64,000 nucleotides of DNA from Coxiellaceae bacterium (lineage in GTDB: Bacteria; Pseudomonadota; Gammaproteobacteria; Coxiellales; Coxiellaceae). Each line of letters starts with the position of its first letter. The first letter of the stretch is position 1. Below, one piece after another: positions 22,737 to 37,438 of the stretch. The stretch spans positions 4,652 through 68,651 of the forward strand of contig JARGPC010000007.1 of assembly GCA_029212885.1 (NCBI GenBank). Direction: 5' to 3'. The translations under genes and the position numbers were made by a program. The notes under the pieces were generated by a model. The model was not told the DNA's origin and did no database searches. It saw only the letters and a list, made by a program, of their open reading frames with translations.

Positions 22737-22805
22737 GAACAATAAGGTTGCACGCTCCTTCCGGCCTAAAGACCGGGGTCTCAGACCAACAAGGAATTAT
22801 GATGA
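22737..22805. repeat. Family 2 dispersed intergenic repeat (short form)
   Basis: GAACAATAAGGTTGCACGCTCCTTCCGGCCTAAAGACCGGGGTCTCAGACCAACAAGGAATTATGATGAAT. Its second copy at 36426-36585 carries a ~80-bp internal insertion. Confidence 0.8.
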
Positions 22806-22807
22806 AT

Positions 22808-25004: not shown

Positions 25005-25697
25005 TTAAGCCATTAACGATTGCAACTGCGGCTGATCCAATAAAGTAATATGGCGACGCCTAACACTAATGACTTGCTGCTTTTCTAATTGCGTCAACAA
25101 GCGGCTAACCGTCTCGCTAGCCAAGCCCAAATAATTGCCAACATCCTCACGTGACATCGGCAAATTGAATTGCGTCGATGAACAACCTCGGCGCTTATAG
25201 CGTGATGATAGGTTTGCTAGAAATCCGACCAGACTTTGCATCGCTGTTGCTTGCCGGCTGGAAAATTGCTCACGCGTCATTTGACCACTCATCATACAAA
25301 ACATTTGTTTTTGTAATATCGGCAATTCAGAGGCCACCTTTAATAATTGTTCAAATGGAATCTTGCATACTGTGCTGGTTTCAAGCGCTTTAACTGTTGT
25401 AATATAACGCTGATCAGAGATTGCATCAAATCCAAACAGCTCTCCAGGCAAGTGAAAGGCGAGTAATTTTTCACTACCATCACTGCTCAATTGCGTGCAT
25501 TTAAATGCACCCGATTGCACTGCATATAATGCTGTAAACTCATCACCAGCTCGACACAACACCTCGCCACGCTCAACCATAATGCTGCGATCAATCAACG
25601 ACGATACCGTCTGCATGTGTTGGTCACTTAACCCCATCGGCAAACAAACCGGATGTAAACAACAATCACCACACCTTACTCTATGCATATCATTCAT
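25005..25697 (-). CDS. fnr: FNR/ANR oxygen-sensing transcriptional regulator (Crp/Fnr family)
   Basis: N-terminal Cys cluster C-x2-C-x5-C (RCGDCCLHPVC) plus a central Cys (ETSTVCKIPFEQL, cf. E. coli ETSMVCEIPFETL). HTH REDVGNYLGLASETVSRLL (cf. REDIGNYLGLTVETISRLL). Confidence 0.9.
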   Translation of the reverse strand: MNDMHRVRCGDCCLHPVCLPMGLSDQHMQTVSSLIDRSIMVERGEVLCRAGDEFTALYAVQSGAFKCTQLSSDGSEKLLAFHLPGELFGFDAISDQRYITTVKALETSTVCKIPFEQLLKVASELPILQKQMFCMMSGQMTREQFSSRQATAMQSLVGFLANLSSRYKRRGCSSTQFNLPMSREDVGNYLGLASETVSRLLTQLEKQQVISVRRRHITLLDQPQLQSLMA

Positions 25698-26965
25698 TTT
25701 ATAATCTCACCCGCTAAACATAACTCATTAACACCCGTCGTATATGGCCCACTGGCCGGCAATCGCAATAAACGCCTCACGGCTAAATAAGCAAAAATTT
25801 CAGCTTCAATGGCTTGCGACTGCCAATTGACTTGATCACACAATAACGCTTCTGCTTTTGGCAAATGCTGCTTTACCAGCTGCTTAAATATGTTAAGTAA
25901 CACCGGATTGTTCCAGCCACCACCCGCAAGAATTAAACGCTGGATCCCGGCTCGGGGGCCGGGATGACAAGTGCGGGGGCCGGAGTCAACCTCTGTCATC
26001 CCCGAGTCAACCTCTGTCATCCCGGACTTGATCCGGGATCCAGCCAACAAGCCTTGCACCAACATATCCGCAGTAAAATACGTCACAGTATAACAAGCAT
26101 CATAAAAAGCCTGCCCCTGTAAAGCGATACCTTCAGGTAAAACCAGGTCATGAATATCTAACGACTTCGGCCATGGCCGATCAGCAAACAACTGCGCATC
26201 ACCGCACACAGCTGTTTGCCACAACTGTTGCAGCAATGCTGTATCAAGCTGGCCTTGAGACGCAAAAAAACCGTCCTTATCATAATGCTGCTTACCCTCA
26301 GTCGCCAGCATCACCAAACGATCAATCAAACCATTACCCGGCCCAATATCACTGGCTTGCACTTGCTCCCAACCTTCACCTGCAACACAGGTGGCATTGC
26401 AAATGCCGCCACAATTTATCACTACCGCCGGCGCTAATTGATCACGCAATACCAATGCCTGATGATAAGCCGGCGCCAACGGTGCGCCCTGCCCACCCTG
26501 CAATACATCATGCAAACGAAATTGGTGCACCAATGGCACCGCTAAAGTATCCGCTAAAGTATCCGCTAAATAATCAGCATCACCCACTTGAATGGTCACC
26601 CCATCTTGTGGTGCGTGATATAACGTCTGCCCATGAAAACCAATCACATCCACCGGTTGATCAACTTGTTGCATTAATTGTTGAATCGCCTGCGCATGAT
26701 ATTGCGTTAATTGCTGCAAACTGCTTACCCAATGATCGCAACGCTGCTGAACAATTGACAGATTACCTTTTGCTTCTGAACACAGCTGCGCCAATTTTTT
26801 TAAGTCGCCTTGCAATGCCGAGGGATAATTAACCGACACATACCCTAACGATTCAATTTCATCCACACCATTAGTGCGGATCATCGCCACATCAACACCA
26901 TCCATTGAGGTGCCGGACATCGTGCCAATTGCTGTATATAAAGTCTGCTGATTCATGCTGCGCAT
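25694..26965 (-). CDS. anmK: Anhydro-N-acetylmuramic acid kinase carrying an in-frame ~105-bp repeat-element insertion
   Basis: N-terminus MRSMNQQTLYTAIGTMSGTSMDGVD matches the AnmK start (MSGTSLDGVD). The C-terminal LILAGGGWNNP corresponds to the conserved GGG(A/V)xN block. The segment SGMTEVDSGMTEVDSGPRTCHPGPRAGIQ is encoded by the family 1 repeat at 25940-26045. The start is chosen at the AnmK-like Met, since the upstream ORF extension to 27187 overlaps the sodC promoter region. Confidence 0.85.
   Translation of the reverse strand: MRSMNQQTLYTAIGTMSGTSMDGVDVAMIRTNGVDEIESLGYVSVNYPSALQGDLKKLAQLCSEAKGNLSIVQQRCDHWVSSLQQLTQYHAQAIQQLMQQVDQPVDVIGFHGQTLYHAPQDGVTIQVGDADYLADTLADTLAVPLVHQFRLHDVLQGGQGAPLAPAYHQALVLRDQLAPAVVINCGGICNATCVAGEGWEQVQASDIGPGNGLIDRLVMLATEGKQHYDKDGFFASQGQLDTALLQQLWQTAVCGDAQLFADRPWPKSLDIHDLVLPEGIALQGQAFYDACYTVTYFTADMLVQGLLAGSRIKSGMTEVDSGMTEVDSGPRTCHPGPRAGIQRLILAGGGWNNPVLLNIFKQLVKQHLPKAEALLCDQVNWQSQAIEAEIFAYLAVRRLLRLPASGPYTTGVNELCLAGEIIK
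25940..26045. repeat. Family 1 hairpin repeat copy inside the anmK coding sequence
   Basis: CTGGATCCCGGCTCGGGGGCCGGGATGACAAG...CCTCTGTCATCCCGGACTTGATCCGGGATCCAG. It has the same termini as the copies at 375-478, 1085-1186 and 33430-33568. Confidence 0.85.
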
Positions 26966-27026
26966 GATAGCACACCCCCCTTTTGATTTGTTACAATCAT
27001 GCCGAACACATCTACAGGAATGTATT

Positions 27027-27518
27027 ATGAAATTTTTAGCCACCCTAGCCCTGTCATTGATCACCGCCACCGCTTTTGCGGATAGCAAAACATTGGTGAT
27101 TAACATGCACCTTTTGAATGGTAAAAATACATCCATTGGCACCATCACCGCCACCGATACTGAAAAAGGTCTCAAGCTAACACCCAATCTGCATGGCTTA
27201 CCGCCAGGTGATCATGGCTTTCATGTACATGTAAAACCCGATTGCAGCAATAAAGGTATGGCAGCCGGTGGACACTACGACCCACTCGATACTAAGCAAC
27301 ACCTAGGCCCTTATAAATATGGCCACCGCGGTGACTTGCCCCGCTTAGAAGCAAACAAAAAAGGCGATGCCGATACGGCCGTTGTTGCACGACACCTCAC
27401 ACTGGAAAAAATCAAAGGCCACAGCTTAATGATTCATGTGCATGGCGATAACTACTCTGACATCCCAAAACCTTTAGGTGGTGGCGGCCCGCGCTTGGCC
27501 TGCGGTGTGATCCAGTAG
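27027..27518 (+). CDS. sodC: Periplasmic Cu/Zn superoxide dismutase
   Basis: Signal peptide MKFLATLALSLITATAFA followed by GFHVHVKPDC, GGHYDP and HGDNYSDIPKPLGGGGPRLACGVIQ. Confidence 0.9.
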   Translation: MKFLATLALSLITATAFADSKTLVINMHLLNGKNTSIGTITATDTEKGLKLTPNLHGLPPGDHGFHVHVKPDCSNKGMAAGGHYDPLDTKQHLGPYKYGHRGDLPRLEANKKGDADTAVVARHLTLEKIKGHSLMIHVHGDNYSDIPKPLGGGGPRLACGVIQ

Positions 27519-30376: not shown

Positions 30377-30565
30377 TTTCTCCAAATAACCATTAGAAAT
30401 GATAAAAATAAATAGAAATAATTTATATTAATATCTTGAATCAACACACCCATAAACGCCATTGTCTCTAAACAGGAAACACTGTTATTCCTTTAGCCTA
30501 CTCTTTCTAAGATAAAAATTCCCCTACGCTGTACTGGTTTCTAAAATGTAGTGGGAGTAAAAAAT

Positions 30566-33436
30566 ATGAGCAGAAAGAAACCTGCAGGTAATGAATATCA
30601 TTTAATGGATGAACACGAACCAGTTATGGTGGGTCGACCAGCACCATCAGCACCGCATGCTGGGGTTGGAGACCTCGAATCCAAACATGGTGACGGCATC
30701 GTCCGTGAACAGATCGGCGACACTTGGCCTGCCGACCTAATCAAACCAAGCGCGGCCTTATTATCCAAACCACAATACCAAGGCGGTGATGGCTTTAGAT
30801 CCATGTACCAACAACTCTATAGTCATGCCGGTAATAAATCAGGCGGCACTTCAATGACCTATGACGTGATGATCAATGAAGGCGAATTAGGTTATCACAC
30901 AACACGTGATGGTAAATTAAAATTACTCGGCCTTGGTCGTCACTGGACAGCAGGGCCATTCTCAACTGACAGTAAATGTAAAAAAGTATCATTAAATCAG
31001 GATGAAGTTCATTTACCGCCCGCCACACGTAGTTCACACAGCCGCTTTCACATCGTACGCGTCAACCCCGGCGAAGTAGTCGCCTATCGATCCAACGGTG
31101 TCGATGGCTTTTTAACTGCCGGCAGTGATGAAGATGGCCGATCGGTACCTGGTTATCATGTGATTGAAAACGACCAAACGTTTCGTGTAACGCAACGTCA
31201 CAACATGAATCAACAGCGCGTCCTAGCACATGCTGGCCCTAACTGGATTTTGAAAGTACCGCCAGGTGAAGTATGCAAAGCATTTGTAGGTTCGAAGCCA
31301 GTTTTATTATCGGAAGGCACACATATTTTTAATAATGCTAATTTTCGTGTATCTGATGCACCATTTGTTAAAACCTCATCGAGCCATATTCAACACAATA
31401 ACTTACACATTATACGTTTAGCACGTGGACAAATGATGGCAGTCAAAGAAGGCACCAATTATCATTTGCTCGGCTCACATCAACTACTCGATGAAGATGC
31501 ACTAGAAGCAAGCCATGCAGATATGCTTGATAAACGCGACCCGTCTGAACCACTAGTATATAACATCAATTCACCCTTATTTCAGGTGTTGAAATTAAGC
31601 GGTGCGGGTGATCGCCCAGCGATTTTTCGCACCAGTGATCCATTAATCCAAGCAGGCTCATTAACCGTGGCTTATGTGCGCGAAGGCACACTTTTGCGTA
31701 TTTGGAATAAAGGGAAACCTGAATTTCTCGAGGCCAGAGATAAACCGTATGTCATCAACAACCCAGCCATTCGTCTCGCCAGTGAAACAGACCCTAACCC
31801 TGCATACCGCTACCCAGCATTAGTGAGCAAAGGCGCGAACGTGATACGTCATGGCGCCAAATGCCGCATCTTTGTGCCCGATGGCCAAGTGTTTTTAGGC
31901 CACCTCCGCGGACAAGCCGTGATACTTGGCGCACGCAAATTAATGAAAGAACGCGAAGACTTAGCCGACGTGCTCGACCATATCGATCCAACGGATTTAA
32001 TGAGCGAAGATGGTAGCTATGTTATTGATGATCCTTCATTCCGCTTAGTCGACGAAACAGCTGCACCCACGCTTGGCATACCGCGCTACCAACACGATGC
32101 ATTGGCTAGCGACCGAGACATTCATCATGGTAACGTCACCATCATGCAAGTAAAACCAGGTGAAGTAGCCGTCGTCAAAGACCTTAAAACCGATAGTAAT
32201 ATCACCTACCCAACTGGTACGCATTTAATCGTGTCACCACAACAAACATTAATCGGCAAGTTACCCTGCAGTGAACAACAACAAGTAATGGATCTAGACG
32301 AGCTGGATGCACAAACCAGTGACTTTCATAAACTGATGATCAAAGCATCGATCACTTACCAAATCACTAACCCTAAATTAGCCGCTCAACAAACTGATCT
32401 CATGAACACACTGCAAAAACAATGCCATGCTGCACTCGGCAACTGCATTAGTAGCACTAAACTGGAGAGCATGGGTCGAGGCAATGTACTACACCACTTA
32501 GCCGAAGACGAAACAAAAGTAAGCGAAGAAAAGGATGAAGAAAACGAGCAACCAGCAGATGAATTTCATCGGGCATTCGATAGCGCCAAAGCTATCTTGT
32601 CCGAATCATTGGAATCAATTGGCGTACACCTAGTGGGTATCAATATCCAACAATGGCATCCCGTCAATGAACACGTCAGTGCTAGTTTGGAGGAAGCAAA
32701 CCTAACCACGCTAACCGCAATGCGTGATGTCACCACCACTGAAGCAGCCGCTTTAAAGCAAGCCGCACAAGCCAAAGGTGATGCCGCCACGTTGGTAGCG
32801 GCTGCCAAAGGTGAAGCGGAAGCGCGCCTCGCGGCTTCCGGTGCCGACAACGAATCGCGAATTCAAGCAGCAAAAACCGCTCAAAGCGAACGTCAAATTG
32901 AAGCCGACGGCGTATTAAAATTAGCTAAAGCCAGAGCAAAAGCCACCAGGGTTGAAGCTAAAGCCCAGGCCGCCGCCGCTAAACTCATAGCTAAAGGAAC
33001 GTTAGCTCAAGCAAAGGCCGAAGCCGAAGGTATCAAGCTAAAGGCCTTAGCAGAGGCCGAAGGTAGCAGAAAACAAATGGAAGCTTTAGCACATGCACCG
33101 CCAGGTCACTGGGCGGTTGAAGCAGAAAAAGCCCGAAGCCAATTATTTACGCACGCATCACTAAACATCACTTCAGCTGAATTCCAAAAACTGTGGATGA
33201 TGACAGCGATGAACCCGATACTGCCTGCGATGCAACAAGCAATGGCCGGTGCGCCAAGTATGGCTAGCATGCCTGGTGTACCTGGTCGAATGCCAACAGG
33301 TATGGCGGTTACCGCGCCACCTACTTTGTTTAGACCAGCATCACCTGTCGCAGCACCGAGCGTACCTGTCGCAACTGCGACAGAAGCTCAAGCGGATGCC
33401 GGTGAGTCTAAGACTGCGACAGCAACTAGGGGATGA
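30566..33436 (+). CDS. Large protein with a flotillin/SPFH-like C-terminal region (Ala/Glu/Lys coiled-coil, band-7-like) and a ~600-aa N-terminal extension of unknown function
   Basis: C-terminal AAQAKGDAATLVAAAKGEAEARLAASGADNESRIQAAKTAQSERQIEADGVLKLAKARAKATRVEAKAQAAAAKLIAKGTLAQAKAEAEGIKLKALAEAEGSRKQMEALA resembles the flotillin (YqiK) tail. The ATG at 30566 is preferred over the GTG at 30551 because of the GGGAG 8 bp upstream. The stop codon TGA lies inside the repeat (GGATGACAA). Confidence 0.5.
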   Translation: MSRKKPAGNEYHLMDEHEPVMVGRPAPSAPHAGVGDLESKHGDGIVREQIGDTWPADLIKPSAALLSKPQYQGGDGFRSMYQQLYSHAGNKSGGTSMTYDVMINEGELGYHTTRDGKLKLLGLGRHWTAGPFSTDSKCKKVSLNQDEVHLPPATRSSHSRFHIVRVNPGEVVAYRSNGVDGFLTAGSDEDGRSVPGYHVIENDQTFRVTQRHNMNQQRVLAHAGPNWILKVPPGEVCKAFVGSKPVLLSEGTHIFNNANFRVSDAPFVKTSSSHIQHNNLHIIRLARGQMMAVKEGTNYHLLGSHQLLDEDALEASHADMLDKRDPSEPLVYNINSPLFQVLKLSGAGDRPAIFRTSDPLIQAGSLTVAYVREGTLLRIWNKGKPEFLEARDKPYVINNPAIRLASETDPNPAYRYPALVSKGANVIRHGAKCRIFVPDGQVFLGHLRGQAVILGARKLMKEREDLADVLDHIDPTDLMSEDGSYVIDDPSFRLVDETAAPTLGIPRYQHDALASDRDIHHGNVTIMQVKPGEVAVVKDLKTDSNITYPTGTHLIVSPQQTLIGKLPCSEQQQVMDLDELDAQTSDFHKLMIKASITYQITNPKLAAQQTDLMNTLQKQCHAALGNCISSTKLESMGRGNVLHHLAEDETKVSEEKDEENEQPADEFHRAFDSAKAILSESLESIGVHLVGINIQQWHPVNEHVSASLEEANLTTLTAMRDVTTTEAAALKQAAQAKGDAATLVAAAKGEAEARLAASGADNESRIQAAKTAQSERQIEADGVLKLAKARAKATRVEAKAQAAAAKLIAKGTLAQAKAEAEGIKLKALAEAEGSRKQMEALAHAPPGHWAVEAEKARSQLFTHASLNITSAEFQKLWMMTAMNPILPAMQQAMAGAPSMASMPGVPGRMPTGMAVTAPPTLFRPASPVAAPSVPVATATEAQADAGESKTATATRG

Positions 33437-33568
33437 CAAACCTTGTCATCCCTGGTAAGACTTGTCATCCCTGGCCCCGACCAGGGATCCACATATTACC
33501 CTGGATCCCGGATCACGCCAGCTTCGCTGGCTGTCCGGGATGACAAGCCAAAGTCCGGGATGACAAAT
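33430..33568. repeat. Family 1 hairpin repeat cluster (GTCATCCCTGG / CCAGGGATCC and GTCCGGGATGACAAG variants) between convergent genes
   Basis: At least four half-units are visible. The cluster supplies the stop codon of the + strand gene and the last ~19 codons plus the stop of the minus-strand DAHP synthase. Confidence 0.85.
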
Positions 33569-34739
33569 CACATTCACACAAATGCGACACCAATAACTTC
33601 GACTGCTCCGGATTCAGGCGCGGATCCACAGGCGAATCATAAGCGCGATCAAGATGATGCTCCTCCATCACCGCACCGCCGCCAATGCATTCAGTAACTG
33701 ACTTGTGTGTCATCTCTAAATGCACGCCATGTAAACGACAATTTTTGCGCTGATGAATATCAAGCGCTTGTGTTAACTCATCCATCATTTCTGCACAATG
33801 GCGTGTTTTCACACCTGTCGCCGTGGTAATGGTGTTGCCATGCATAGGATCGCATAACCATAACACCGGCACCTCTGTGGCTAACGCCGCATCAATTAAC
33901 TTAGGTAAACGCTCAGCAATACGCGACTGACCTAAACGATAAATCAAACTCAACTTGCCAGGAATTTTATCAGGATTTAAACGCACTATCATATCCTGCA
34001 AAACTCGATCGGTTAATGTCGGCCCCACTTTAATCGCCACCGGATTTGCAATGCCACTCGCATATTCAATATGAGCGGAATCCGGTTGTGCCGTGCGCAT
34101 ACCAATCCACGGAAAATGTGTCGACACATTATAGTAATGCCCATCATCGGCTTGGCGCGTTAACGCTTGTTCAAAATCTAAATGCAGTGCTTCATGGCTA
34201 GTGATCAATGACGGCCAATGCGAGTCTTGAATCAAACGCAAACAACGCGTTGCCATATCGTAAGCGGTGAGTAATCGCATCGGATCCAATTGCCGTGCCG
34301 TCGCACTCGGCGCCGCATCATTAATCATGTCACCACGATAGCGTGGAATCGCCGCTTCGTTTACACGCTCCAATAGCTCACTGCGTGGCTTTGCAAACTG
34401 GCCAGCAATGCGCCCTACCGGTAACACATCACAACCCAACTGCTCAGACAAATAGTCACTCAAGTCAGTTAATAATTGCAACTGTGCACTAACATGATGA
34501 CTGCTAATATCCAAAAAGCATTCAGCACAATCACCACCCTGTAAAATAAAACCATCGCCAGCGTAAATTTGCTGTAATCGACTATTCAGCGCTTGAATGG
34601 AAGAGATAGATATCAAACCCTGATATTCAGCTAACTGTTTTAATACTACCTGCAATTCAAGCAGCGCCATTTCACTGTATTGGATCGGTTGGAAATTTTC
34701 ATACTGCCGCCATGAAGACGGCGACCATTGCTTTTTCAT
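33513..34739 (-). CDS. 3-deoxy-7-phosphoheptulonate (DAHP) synthase, class II (AroA-II, plant-like)
   Basis: N-terminal WSPSSWRQYENFQPIQY...FILQGGDCAECF with further conserved class II blocks. The C-terminal tail ...CDLSSRTLACHPGQPAKLA is read from the repeat element. Confidence 0.85.
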   Translation of the reverse strand: MKKQWSPSSWRQYENFQPIQYSEMALLELQVVLKQLAEYQGLISISSIQALNSRLQQIYAGDGFILQGGDCAECFLDISSHHVSAQLQLLTDLSDYLSEQLGCDVLPVGRIAGQFAKPRSELLERVNEAAIPRYRGDMINDAAPSATARQLDPMRLLTAYDMATRCLRLIQDSHWPSLITSHEALHLDFEQALTRQADDGHYYNVSTHFPWIGMRTAQPDSAHIEYASGIANPVAIKVGPTLTDRVLQDMIVRLNPDKIPGKLSLIYRLGQSRIAERLPKLIDAALATEVPVLWLCDPMHGNTITTATGVKTRHCAEMMDELTQALDIHQRKNCRLHGVHLEMTHKSVTECIGGGAVMEEHHLDRAYDSPVDPRLNPEQSKLLVSHLCECDLSSRTLACHPGQPAKLA

Positions 34740-36425: not shown

Positions 36426-36585
36426 CCCCCGAACAATAAGGTTGCACGCTCTGCGTGCACTCAGGTTTGGAAGGTGTTTGAATCACCTCCCAAACCCGCG
36501 CGAATGAAAGCTGACAGTCTCTGTCAGCACGCGCTCCTTCCGGCCTAATGGCCGGGGTCTCAGGCCAACAAGGAATTTTGATGAA
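36426..36585. repeat. Family 2 dispersed intergenic repeat (long form, with internal palindromic insertion)
   Basis: It shares GAACAATAAGGTTGCACGCTC ... CTTCCGGCCTAATGGCCGGGGTCTCAGGCCAACAAGGAATTTTGATGAAT with 22737-22805. The extra segment contains GCTGACAGTCTCTGTCAGC palindromes. Confidence 0.8.
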
Positions 36586-37438
36586 TGCAACTAAATCAAC
36601 TATTCGAGCCATTGGGCAACTGATACGATTCGACAAGCCCATTGGCAGCTTATTATTACTGTGGCCCACGATGTGGGCATTATGGCTCGCCGCCGATGGC
36701 ATGCCGCCATGGCCAATTCTACTGATCTTTATTGCCGGCGTGTTTGTCACTCGCTCAGCAGGTTGCGTGATCAATGACTTATGGGATCGCAGGTTTGATG
36801 GTCGCGTAAAACGCACCGCCACACGACCACTCGCCAGCGGCGCCCTATCGGTTCGAGCCGCATTGGCAGTGCTATTCATCCTAGCTGCCACCGCTTTAGC
36901 ACTGGTGTTATGCCTGAATGCTTTAACGATTAAACTGGCTTTTGTCGGCGTGGTACTCACCGCGTCGTACCCGGCCTGCAAACGATTTTTTAAATTACCG
37001 CAACTGGTGTTGGGCTTAACATTTAATTGGGGCGTGATCATGGCGTTTGCCGCCATACAAAATCATGTGCCAATGATCGCTTGGTGGCTATATGCCATCG
37101 TGAATGTATGGACAATGGTTTACGACACCCAATATGCCATGGTTGATCGTGATGATGATATCAAGCTCGGCCTGCATTCCAGTGCGATTCTATTTGCAAG
37201 CTATGATCGCGTGATCATTGCCAGCTTACAAACCGTAGTCATTGCAGGGTTGTTATTACTGGCCGTAGCGCGCGCCACGCACTGGCCATTTTATTTATCT
37301 TTAGTCATTGCGAGCGGATTATTTGTATATCAGCAACGACTGACATGGCAACAACAACGCGAACCATGCTTTAAAGCGTTTCTAAACAATCAATGGGTAG
37401 GGCTAGTGATTTGGCTTGGCTGGGTATTAGGCAGCTAA
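36584..37438 (+). CDS. ubiA: 4-hydroxybenzoate octaprenyltransferase
   Basis: NDLWDRRFDGRVKRTATRPLASG and a second Asp-rich motif YDTQYAMVDRDDDIKLG. The start is set at MNATKSTIRA. Confidence 0.9.
   Translation, partial: NATKSTIRAIGQLIRFDKPIGSLLLLWPTMWALWLAADGMPPWPILLIFIAGVFVTRSAGCVINDLWDRRFDGRVKRTATRPLASGALSVRAALAVLFILAATALALVLCLNALTIKLAFVGVVLTASYPACKRFFKLPQLVLGLTFNWGVIMAFAAIQNHVPMIAWWLYAIVNVWTMVYDTQYAMVDRDDDIKLGLHSSAILFASYDRVIIASLQTVVIAGLLLLAVARATHWPFYLSLVIASGLFVYQQRLTWQQQREPCFKAFLNNQWVGLVIWLGWVLGS

Follow-up and report, generated by a model that had tools for sequence, protein, structure and literature searches.

Ogata and colleagues are said, in 2000, to have described Rickettsia palindromic elements (RPEs) as palindromic repeats that lie in frame within genes that stay functional. 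RPE inserts sit in a loop compatible with the protein fold, and orthologous RPE insertions are common to several species. The classic case, RPE-1, is longer (~100-150 bp), and its sequence is unrelated to that of the element described here, which lies in the gene anmK. Arrays of the Neisseria repeat dRS3 are best known from intergenic regions and as integration targets of the phage or IS110 type; to our knowledge they do not occur as coding inserts. The dRS3/NIME arrays share with the anmK element the same hairpin design (CGTC-ATTCCCGC-loop-GCGGGAAT-CCA) and a clustered arrangement, but the dRS3 stem is the ATTCCCGC variant, unlike that of the anmK element.

The superfamily of CGTC-tagged REPs (CGTC-1 to CGTC-4; Di Nocera, De Gregorio and Rocco 2013) includes Neisseria dRS3 (= CGTC-1) and, from R. 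conorii, RPE-6 (= CGTC-1) and RPE-4 (= CGTC-4) (PMC3733652). By definition a CGTC REP has an unpaired CGTC tag, often TGTC or CCTC, a stem of 8-9 bp with complementary A and T at the first two positions, a loop of 4-5 nt, with exceptions noted, and a short unpaired tail that fits CCA (PMC3733652). The repeats occur mostly as tag-to-tag dimers, usually near the 3' ends of convergent or co-directional genes; grouped elements are called rare, and no associated dedicated transposase is known (PMC3733652). Occasional intragenic copies encoding ~20-30 aa in frame (...AGMT, CHPG... and GSR... peptides) have been tabulated, among them CBU_0453 (VIPACAGMT) and CBU_1766 (GSRLRGND) of C. burnetii, as well as dimers such as ...IPASAGMT in tRNA synthetases (PMC3733652). 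C. burnetii, which belongs to the same bacterial family as the genome studied here, also carries QMITE1 (300-400 bp) and QMITE2 (150-190 bp, carrying direct repeats of 7-11 nt and a REP of the GTAG rather than the CGTC type), small non-autonomous repeats of which some overlap ORFs; the overlaps with functional genes are C-terminal and span a few bp (Wachter et al. 2018, PMC5896051). The described sizes, direct repeats and GTAG REP led us to reject QMITE1 and QMITE2 as the family of the anmK element.

We define "the window" as the whole 64-kb (64,000-nucleotide) stretch analysed here, part of a metagenome-assembled genome (MAG) from an uncultured Coxiellaceae lineage. The gene and the parts of the element within it are:

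25694..26965, minus strand: anmK (anhydro-N-acetylmuramic acid kinase), 423 codons plus stop, intact
25940..26043, unstranded: whole palindromic element in anmK, 104 nt from CTGG to CCAG, coding for AnmK residues ~309-342
25940..25969, minus strand: REP unit A, TGTC-ATCCCGGC-CCCCGA-GCCGGGAT-CCAG, coding for ...CHPGPRAGIQ
25983..26023, unstranded: 21-nt half-unit tandem, 2.0 copies, 100% identical (TRF), coding for SGMTEVD x 2
26013..26043, plus strand: REP unit B, TCTGTC-ATCCCGGA-CTTGA-TCCGGGAT-CCAG, the gene strand coding for GSRIKSGMT

The minus-strand ORF that contains anmK is open from 27187 to 25694. As the initial annotation had stated, the frame stays open across the element, which it reads as ...LLA-GSRIKSGMTEVDSGMTEVDSGPRTCHPGPRAGIQ-RLILAGGGWNNP. 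GSRIKSGMTEVDSGMTEVDSGPRTCHPGPRAGIQ directly precedes the GGG motif, in keeping with the earlier placement of the element between conserved AnmK blocks and just before that motif. The element is open in only two of six frames, one of which is the anmK frame, and the predicted elongated AnmK includes the peptide stretch SGMTEVDSGMTEVD. The anmK product is 100% identical to P0001, a 423-aa protein annotated as AnmK from a Coxiellaceae MAG, and it matches Pfam AnmK PF03702 with E = 1e-58 (199.6 bits, against a gathering cut-off of 24) and the AnmK entries of the PDB with E = 1e-34. All 41 invariant columns of the AnmK alignment, which include catalytic and nucleotide-binding residues, are kept (41/41), and dN/dS outside the insert, relative to orthologues, is 0.065-0.09. 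Purifying selection acts on anmK apart from the insert. The view that the gene is not broken, its kinase function apparently retained, is supported by its sequence.

The element is a tag-to-tag dimer in which two inverted hairpin units flank a 2 x 21-nt tandem of half-units; the palindrome measures 106 nt if one more complementary G/C pair is counted. Its hairpin units are built of a TGTC tag, an 8-bp stem starting with AT, a loop of 5-6 nt and a CCAG tail, and its half-units consist of a REP arm, a tag and a 9-nt spacer. The ends form an 11-bp perfect TIR (CTGGATCCCGG...CCGGGATCCAG), with arms that, taken as whole REP units, reach ~30 nt. No target-site duplication is present at the element, the flanks (...AAACG/CTGG...CCAG/CCAAC, slashes at the junctions) being free of direct repeats, and a classical MITE with target-site duplication was rejected on this ground; in an old insertion, a short duplication could have decayed. 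The element is predicted to fold as one long hairpin as RNA (-60.1 kcal/mol, z = -3.45), and its predicted DNA fold has an energy of -33.7 kcal/mol (z = -4.95). An Rfam scan of the whole window found no family at the element, its sole match being a 6S RNA elsewhere. A terminator/promoter scan of 25600-27200 called nothing there, which leaves an internal terminator unsupported.

The initial annotation assigned the sequence at 25940-26045 to a dispersed repeat family, and copies are indeed found elsewhere in the window. A 28-nt arm of the element has three matches in the window at no more than two mismatches (0.00 expected), and its 11-mer core, CCGGGATGACA, occurs 15 times at no more than one mismatch (0.45 expected). 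The family forms five clusters within the 64-kb window. Outside anmK it is located at:

361..476, plus strand: array of 4.9 x 21-nt half-units, then a full REP unit, just upstream of a minus-strand gene starting near 345
620..669, plus strand: degenerate half-unit and full REP unit, spanned by no substantial ORF
1085..1185, minus strand: intergenic tandem of three full REP units of 35 nt, the third degenerate
33430..33565, unstranded: cluster of REP units and half-units, flanked by two convergent genes

Unit A is 88-93% complementary to the copies at 447-476, 640-669 and 33460-33491, and unit B (26013-26043) is complementary at 31 of 31 positions to the intergenic copies at 1085-1115 and 1120-1150. 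Family D1 connects the tandem at 25983..26023 with the 21-nt array at 361-462. The pair at 33460-33545 and the anmK copy are tag-to-tag or tail-to-tail dimers, and the REP unit at 33463-33491 carries a fully compensated stem variant, ATCCCTGG/CCAGGGAT.

The anmK element is a dimer of CGTC/TGTC-tagged REPs, a type that is spread through many bacterial phyla and already catalogued. In every full unit of the window TGTC adjoins the stem and CCAG follows it, and the stems of the anmK units are 8 bp each (ATCCCGGA/TCCGGGAT and ATCCCGGC/GCCGGGAT). Dispersal, dimers and positions at 3' ends of genes are all seen within the 64-kb window. A search with the exact hairpin pattern, its arms, tail and tag fixed and its loop free, matched at least 119 stretches, from Alpha-, Beta- and Gammaproteobacteria, CPR, Rickettsiales and Coxiellaceae. 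In-frame copies of this REP type also occur in an amine oxidase, in an N6 DNA methylase and in IleS of a Rickettsia endosymbiont, and the IleS copy has the same stem as the anmK element. A 42-aa peptide query of an index of 5.8 billion proteins, made for other decorated proteins, returned no candidate. The window repeats differ from published CGTC REPs in their stem, a CCCGG variant, and in their loops, which are 5 nt (CTTGA), 6 nt (CCCCGA, CTACGA) and once, in the REP unit at 33501-33545, 23 nt, against a published 4-5 nt with exceptions. They also differ in the amplification, as tandems of 19-21 nt, of half-units that have an arm and a tag but lack the partner arm, and both the host gene anmK and the uncultured Coxiellaceae lineage are absent from the published CGTC REP tables (PMC3733652).

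Compared with the Rickettsia RPEs, the anmK element is likewise an in-frame palindromic insert in a fold-compatible loop, with an insertion shared by orthologues: the frame is open, dN/dS is 0.07-0.09, and the insert is a low-pLDDT loop in an otherwise confident model. The hosts differ, the anmK element being in a gammaproteobacterium, and we know of no RPE counterpart to its internal 21-nt tandem expansion. At the level of sequence families, the likeness rests on the published equivalences of RPE-6 with CGTC-1 and of RPE-4 with CGTC-4 (PMC3733652). The RPE-like behaviour that the initial annotation proposed is upheld, and the likeness extends beyond what it had supposed: in tag, stem, tail and tag-to-tag pairing the unit fits the definition of CGTC REPs, the superfamily to which RPE-4 and RPE-6 belong. 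Its further suggestion, that such behaviour had not been described for this repeat type, fails because in-frame intragenic CGTC REPs, C. burnetii examples included, had already been tabulated (PMC3733652). The anmK insert clearly adds an example to a phenomenon already known and does not represent a novel kind of element.

The segment F297..G348 is 52 aa long in the window AnmK, versus 21-28 aa (mostly 25) in 74 other AnmKs, and 74 of 79 homologues have nothing like the insert. Of the 105-bp insertion said to add ~35 residues, the 35 element-derived codons are confirmed, but the net gain is ~27 residues, so that native loop residues have been replaced or lost. The AF2 model of the window AnmK has a pLDDT of 92.3 and an intact AnmK fold, with a Foldseek TM-score (target-normalised) of 0.87-0.90 against P. 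aeruginosa AnmK 3QBW/3QBX. For most of residues 313-338 the model has a pLDDT below 50 (means of 46-50 for the 10-residue blocks of 311-340), and this stretch lies between helix 284-309 and strand 343-347. The insert is predicted to be a disordered loop and, from pLDDT and secondary structure, a surface loop. In P. aeruginosa AnmK, the functional loops that have been named are L8-14, the 96-110 hairpin and L229-241 (PMC10570956). By alignment, the insertion site is just before residue 290 of 8BRE (285 of 3QBW), outside these loops.

The orthologues P0002 and P0003, whose AnmKs are ~80% identical to that of the window, carry the element at the identical site. The left and right junctions are the same in all three genes, and the element is found at this site in three sources: the window, GCA_029210045.1 and the P0002 contigs (GCA_022599615.1, ENA ERZ23491157). 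The P0002 and P0003 inserts hold 3-4 lineage-specific 21-nt units, and the heptapeptide repeats are SGMTEVD x2 in the window and SGMTSAK x3 and SGMTSDE/SGE x4 in the other lineages; all genomes compared are metagenome assemblies, in which repeat copy numbers could be mis-assembled. A more distant orthologue, P0005, keeps a decayed single unit at the same site, its loop being significantly similar to one unit in shuffle tests (0/2000 shuffles against the P0002/P0003 elements, 0.003 against the window element). The 16-aa loop of P0004 has no detectable similarity to the element, and we dropped the idea that it is a decayed copy because local alignment scores were no better than those of shuffles. 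With a dS of 0.67, P0002 and P0004 are more closely related than any other pair, but the element is present in the former and absent from the latter, a phylogenetic position that points to secondary loss in P0004. Among the orthologues compared, no close outgroup has an empty site that defines the insertion at the nucleotide level, and a metagenome contig scan with P0001 returned distant AnmKs only (31-36% identity), with no further insert carriers. In place of the simple insertion first pictured, the comparison suggests an old element, common to two orthologues, with a remnant in a third and a loss in a fourth, that changes in 21-nt steps.

The explanation that we regard as probable is that an old in-frame CGTC/TGTC REP dimer in anmK has been inherited and is evolving in place. 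A REP dimer would have entered anmK in an ancestor of this Coxiellaceae clade, at the link between the last long helix and the beta-strand that bears the GGG nucleotide-binding motif, and would have landed, or been trimmed, with the reading frame open; we infer that this ancestral insertion occurred once. Because the added peptide would form a flexible loop lying clear of the named catalytic and gating loops, the kinase could have kept working and the insertion could have been inherited. The insert peptide is probably neutral, and the elongated AnmK is presumably expressed. Slipped-strand events between CCGGGATGACA cores, the likely mechanism of length change in the 21-nt units, would add or remove half-units, and lineage-specific heptapeptide repeats would arise because only multiples of three should survive in a coding region. 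Later, one lineage would have kept only a single decayed unit, and another would have lost the element.

Unit B is identical to the P0003 anmK copy at 29/29 nt and to the P0002 copy at 28/29, whereas four-fold degenerate sites between those anmK lineages are only 42-47% identical, near saturation. Passive neutral inheritance therefore does not explain unit B; its identity requires selection on a DNA/RNA hairpin, gene conversion from other copies, or re-insertion. We consider it unlikely that the unit B hairpin sequence is actively maintained, with the half-units acting as a built-in 21-nt coding VNTR that has a DNA/RNA function or forms a selected surface loop of AnmK that varies rapidly. It also seems improbable that, lineage by lineage, a MITE-like element inserted recently, or repeatedly and independently, into a hot spot in anmK. 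Such insertions would fit a dispersed family of ~104-nt elements with an 11-bp perfect TIR, hairpin units as alike between lineages as young copies would be despite saturated synonymous sites, and the lack of the element in P0004, the closest relative of P0002. However, three genomes share both the left and the right junction exactly, the decayed unit that the more distant P0005 has at this site implies age, the element has no target-site duplication, and CGTC REPs have no known transposase (PMC3733652). The anmK copies of all three genomes also keep one loop type (ATCAAGT/ATCGAGT), while other loops occur elsewhere in those genomes, including the other copies of the P0003 genome, which argues for orthology.

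Co-option is less probable still: the conserved hairpin would act in anmK mRNA or DNA, or the variable heptad loop would give AnmK a new property. Candidate roles for such a hairpin are stability, translational pausing, or a protein-binding or recombination site. The near-complete conservation of unit B, far above the four-fold identity, the strong predicted hairpin and the retention of the element across lineages with dS >1.2 are in its favour. But the element appears to have been lost in P0004 without a similar replacement and reduced to a remnant in P0005, with the constraint on anmK unchanged. The spacer and heptad sequences are not conserved between lineages, disorder is predicted for the insert peptide, neither a terminator-like site nor an Rfam family was called at the element, and gene conversion by identical intergenic copies could account for unit B instead. 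An artefact or a dead gene that is still open is very improbable: short repeats can mislead assemblers in a MAG, and tandem copy number is hard to assemble, but both flanks are contiguous anmK in the correct frame and the element occurs at this site in three separate sources, while the low dN/dS and the complete set of invariant residues argue against a pseudogene. A native low-complexity AnmK loop resembling the repeat by chance is refuted, since, despite some variation in AnmK loops here (21-28 aa), the 31/31 nt identity to intergenic copies, the zero matches expected by chance and the 74/79 homologues lacking anything similar leave it practically no probability.

The locus is a clean example, open to dating, of how a conserved enzyme has taken up a selfish palindromic repeat, with four states visible in related genomes: full dimer, expanded arrays, remnant and probable loss. 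With it, the RPE-type phenomenon reaches uncultured Coxiellaceae and a gene of peptidoglycan recycling, and the locus suggests that length steps of 21 nt can make a REP into a variable heptad repeat; existing knowledge of how CGTC REPs work is unchanged. If the hairpin were indeed maintained and the half-units a coding VNTR, CGTC REPs would generate evolvable protein segments, beyond tolerated junk. For annotation, REP-derived peptides (…SGMT…, …CHPG…, …AGIQ) are to be weighed when judging gene boundaries and C-terminal extensions in genomes of this kind. The cluster at 33430..33565 provides the stop codon of a 961-aa gene (30551..33436) and the last ~13-17 codons and the stop of a DAHP-synthase-like gene (33513..34739, minus strand). 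The array period is 21 in genes, and 19, 20, 21 and 35 in the intergenic arrays of the window.

The anmK gene of the uncultured Coxiellaceae bacterium (25694..26965, minus strand) is crossed by a palindromic element of 104 nt, a dimer of CGTC-type REP units, through which the reading frame remains open. The encoded protein (P0001) is 100% identical to 'MAG: anhydro-N-acetylmuramic acid kinase [Coxiellaceae bacterium]', has a Pfam AnmK match of 199.6 bits, and matches the Pseudomonas and Shewanella AnmK structures with E about 1e-34; the gene order sodC-anmK-crp/fnr is kept in four related assemblies.

Parts of the element in anmK (25940-26043), read on the gene strand
Part 1: hairpin unit, CTGG-ATCCCGGA-TCAAG-TCCGGGAT-GACA
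Part 2: two perfect 21-nt repeats, each an arm-plus-tag TC(G/C)GGGATGACA and a 9-nt spacer
Part 3: short linker
Part 4: second hairpin unit, opposite orientation, TGTC-ATCCCGGC-CCCCGA-GCCGGGAT-CCAG

TRF places the 21-nt tandem at 25983-26023 (period 21, 2.0 copies, 100%). Folding predictions give a single long hairpin for the entire element, at -60.1 kcal/mol as RNA (z = -3.45) and -33.7 kcal/mol as DNA (z = -4.95). Its translation, GSRIKSGMTEVDSGMTEVDSGPRTCHPGPRAGIQ, runs directly into RLILAGGGWNNP, bearing out the in-frame insertion proposed in the initial annotation. The element is open in only 2 of 6 frames, the anmK frame among them, and a single REP unit in 4 of 6. A target-site duplication was sought in the flanks, and none was visible.

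The element belongs to a dispersed family, as had been proposed. One arm is complementary at 31/31 positions to two intergenic copies (1085-1115 and 1120-1150), and the other pairs with the copies at 447-476, 640-669 and 33460-33491 at 88-93% complementarity. Chance does not account for these matches: within the window the 28-nt arm has 3 (0.00 expected) and the 11-nt core 15 (0.45 expected), and the family forms five clusters.

Clusters of the repeat family in the window
361-476: array of 4.9 x 21 nt, plus a unit
620-669: one unit
1085-1185: three full REP units of 35 nt in tandem (98% identical), the last of them degenerate
25940-26043: the anmK copy
33430-33565: REP units and half-units (REP arm plus tag) between two convergent genes

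Array periods are 21 within genes and 19, 20, 21 and 35 in the intergenic arrays of the window, a small sample that fits a filter for multiples of three.

Every full unit in the window carries TGTC as its unpaired tag, a stem of 8 bp starting with AT and a CCAG tail, with loops of 5-6 nt (once 23 nt), and in the anmK copy the two tags face each other. Tag, stem and tail are those of the published CGTC-tagged REP superfamily (2013, PMC3733652), for which loops of 4-5 nt, with exceptions, are given. The paper equates CGTC-1 with dRS3 of Neisseria and RPE-6 of R. conorii, and CGTC-4 with RPE-4; the earlier comparison with Rickettsia palindromic elements (RPE) was therefore apt. The same paper tabulates in-frame intragenic copies in CBU_0453 (VIPACAGMT) and CBU_1766 (GSRLRGND), and dimers in tRNA synthetases (e.g. 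VVPAKAGTS...IPASAGMT). When one genome per species was scanned for the hairpin pattern GGATCCCGG-N(4-30)-CCGGGATGACA, at least 119 stretches matched, and the true spread of the hairpin is wider. Among the matches listed, the sources include Alpha-, Beta- and Gammaproteobacteria, candidate-phyla-radiation bacteria, Rickettsiales and Coxiellaceae; a 27-nt hairpin letter-identical to the anmK unit, GGATCCCGGATCAAGTCCGGGATGACA, recurs at L008, L011, L033, L039, L040 and other loci, in carriers as unrelated as a betaproteobacterium, Sphingopyxis, Omnitrophota, Ramlibacter and an Olavius symbiont; and the base pair that closes the TCAAG loop shows covariation (A..T, G..C, C..G). Three genes among the low-GC matches listed carry the same REP type in frame, encoding an isoleucyl-tRNA synthetase (Rickettsia endosymbiont), a flavin amine oxidase and an N6 DNA methylase. 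Because the published definition and in-frame copies, together with these three genes, already describe both the repeat type and its behaviour, the novelty first claimed for the repeat type does not hold. The observation itself is confirmed and its interpretation partly supported: the anmK copy, in frame and RPE-like, adds one more case to a known phenomenon, from a gene and a lineage that are both new to it.

We compared the loop segment from F297 to G348 (window protein numbering), which spans 21-28 residues, mostly 25, in 74 AnmK homologues; in this alignment the inserted residues are not native AnmK sequence.

Length of the F297-G348 segment in the window protein and related orthologues
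P0001 (window): 52 aa
P0002: 49 aa
P0003: 56 aa
P0004: 31 aa
P0005: 28 aa

The figure of about 35 added residues stands as the number of element-derived codons (35) but not as the net gain, which is about 27. P0002 and P0003, both ~80% identical to the window protein, have the element at exactly the same position in their DNA, and share with the window its first unit (CT GGA TCC CGG ATC RAG TCC GGG ATG ACA) and its end (GGG ATC CAG). Beyond the first hairpin unit each has three more 21-nt units with their own spacers, AGCGATGAG or AGTGCGAAG, encoding SGMTSDE/SGMTSGE and SGMTSAK repeats; SGMT-type heptads number four in P0003 and three in P0002 in all. In P0005 (66% identity over its full length) the loop is of normal length, and its DNA, GAG TCC CGG ATG ACG GGT GAT GAG, resembles one unit significantly: the score was reached by 0/2000 shuffles against the P0002/P0003 elements and by 0.3% against the window element. 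We read this loop as a probable decayed remnant. Alignment against shuffles detected no similarity between the 16-aa loop of P0004 and the element, and no two of these proteins are closer than P0002 and P0004, with a dS of 0.67 and, outside the insert, 90% identity. Judged from these sequences, the simplest history would be that an ancestral anmK received a single insertion, which then grew and shrank locally by 21 nt at a time, decayed in P0005 and was lost from P0004. This series is unusually legible, and the 21-nt coding tandem is a minor twist.

The host protein appears intact around the insert. Outside it, dN/dS between carriers and non-carriers is 0.065-0.09 (dS above 1.2), and the window protein retains 41/41 columns invariant across 79 AnmKs. 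An AlphaFold2 model built from a 79-sequence alignment has a mean pLDDT of 92.3 and a pTM of 0.91; besides the N-terminus, the only low-confidence stretch is 311-341 (10-residue block means 46-50; runs <50 within 313-338). The insert falls in this loop, flanked by helix 284-309 on one side and on the other by strand 343-347, the latter leading to G348-G350. The model matches P. aeruginosa AnmK with a TM-score (normalised to target) of 0.87-0.90, and the alignment with the solved AnmKs puts the insertion site just N-terminal to residue 290 of 8BRE (285 of 3QBW), outside the functional mobile elements of that enzyme, L8-14, the 96-110 hairpin and L229-241 (PMC10570956). Judged from pLDDT and secondary structure, the surface position raised in the initial annotation is likely: the loop is probably solvent-exposed and clear of the dimer interface.

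Co-option of the element for a function is possible but unsupported, since P0004 and P0005 can dispense with it, its spacers lack conservation, and neither an Rfam scan of the whole window nor a terminator search of 25600-27200 called a family or terminator at it. Identical junctions, a common loop subtype and the remnant in P0005 speak against independent insertions into an anmK hot spot. An assembly artefact or pseudogene is likewise disfavoured, given strong purifying selection and an element that three separate sources (the window, GCA_029210045.1 and the P0002 contigs) place at one and the same site. A native AnmK loop is excluded by the repeat matches, the arm complementarity to other copies and the homologue loop lengths.

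The window, P0003 and P0002 genes are only 42-47% identical at four-fold degenerate sites, whereas their first hairpin units are identical at 29/29 and 28/29 nt and the terminal GGGATCCAG at 9/9. The probability of such identity under neutrality is about 1e-10, and six four-fold sites in the hairpin peptide would be expected to differ even with the peptide conserved. The hairpin may be under DNA- or RNA-level selection, kept uniform through conversion by copies identical to it (1085-1150, for example), or put back by re-insertion. Other REP copies in the P0003 genome carry different loops among the matches listed, which makes it unlikely that just any member of the family served as the conversion donor.

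The 361-476 cluster, five tandem 21-nt half-REP units and one full unit, lies directly upstream of a minus-strand gene starting near 345 (MPVITHRYDG...), in whose frame each unit holds a stop (AGMTEL*); the array spacer has GTAG at the place of GTTGAC in the anmK units. The 1085-1185 array, two units of which are letter-identical to the anmK unit, sits between the start of a 121-aa gene (683..1048, minus) and the end of a 400-aa ORF (1321..2523, minus). At 33430-33565, the stop codon of a 961-aa gene (30551..33436, ...ATRG*) is within the half-unit GGGGATGACA, and the last ~13-17 residues and stop of a DAHP-synthase-like gene (33513..34739, minus, ...SSRTLACHPGQPAKLA*) come from REP sequence; its orthologue at L005 ends otherwise (...LRHLRVEQHLD*). 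A separate 55-nt repeat, CGCTCCTTCCGGCCTAAWGRCCGGGGTCTCAGRCCAACAAGGAATTWTGATGAAT, with its own small hairpin, has copies at 22753-22807 and 36532-36586 (93% identical), one between convergent genes and the other overlapping the start of a 296-aa ORF (36548..37438, plus). Of all Rfam families, 6S RNA alone (RF00013; 60189-60368, minus, 53.6 bits, full length) exceeds its gathering score in the window.

In relatives, a protein with a WipA-type phosphatase domain (PF21663, named from a Legionella effector) is encoded at L001 6847-9078 and L002 6804-9137, two genes from anmK and past sodC, which fits an intracellular lifestyle. Within anmK, a perfect 12-nt tandem at 26539-26570 (minus; period 12, 2.7 copies, 100%) encodes DYLA-DTLA-DTLA, in or beside helix 130-138 of the model. 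Because the orthologues have one 12-nt unit fewer, the window protein has a second in-frame insertion here, of 4 residues and unrelated to the REP element.
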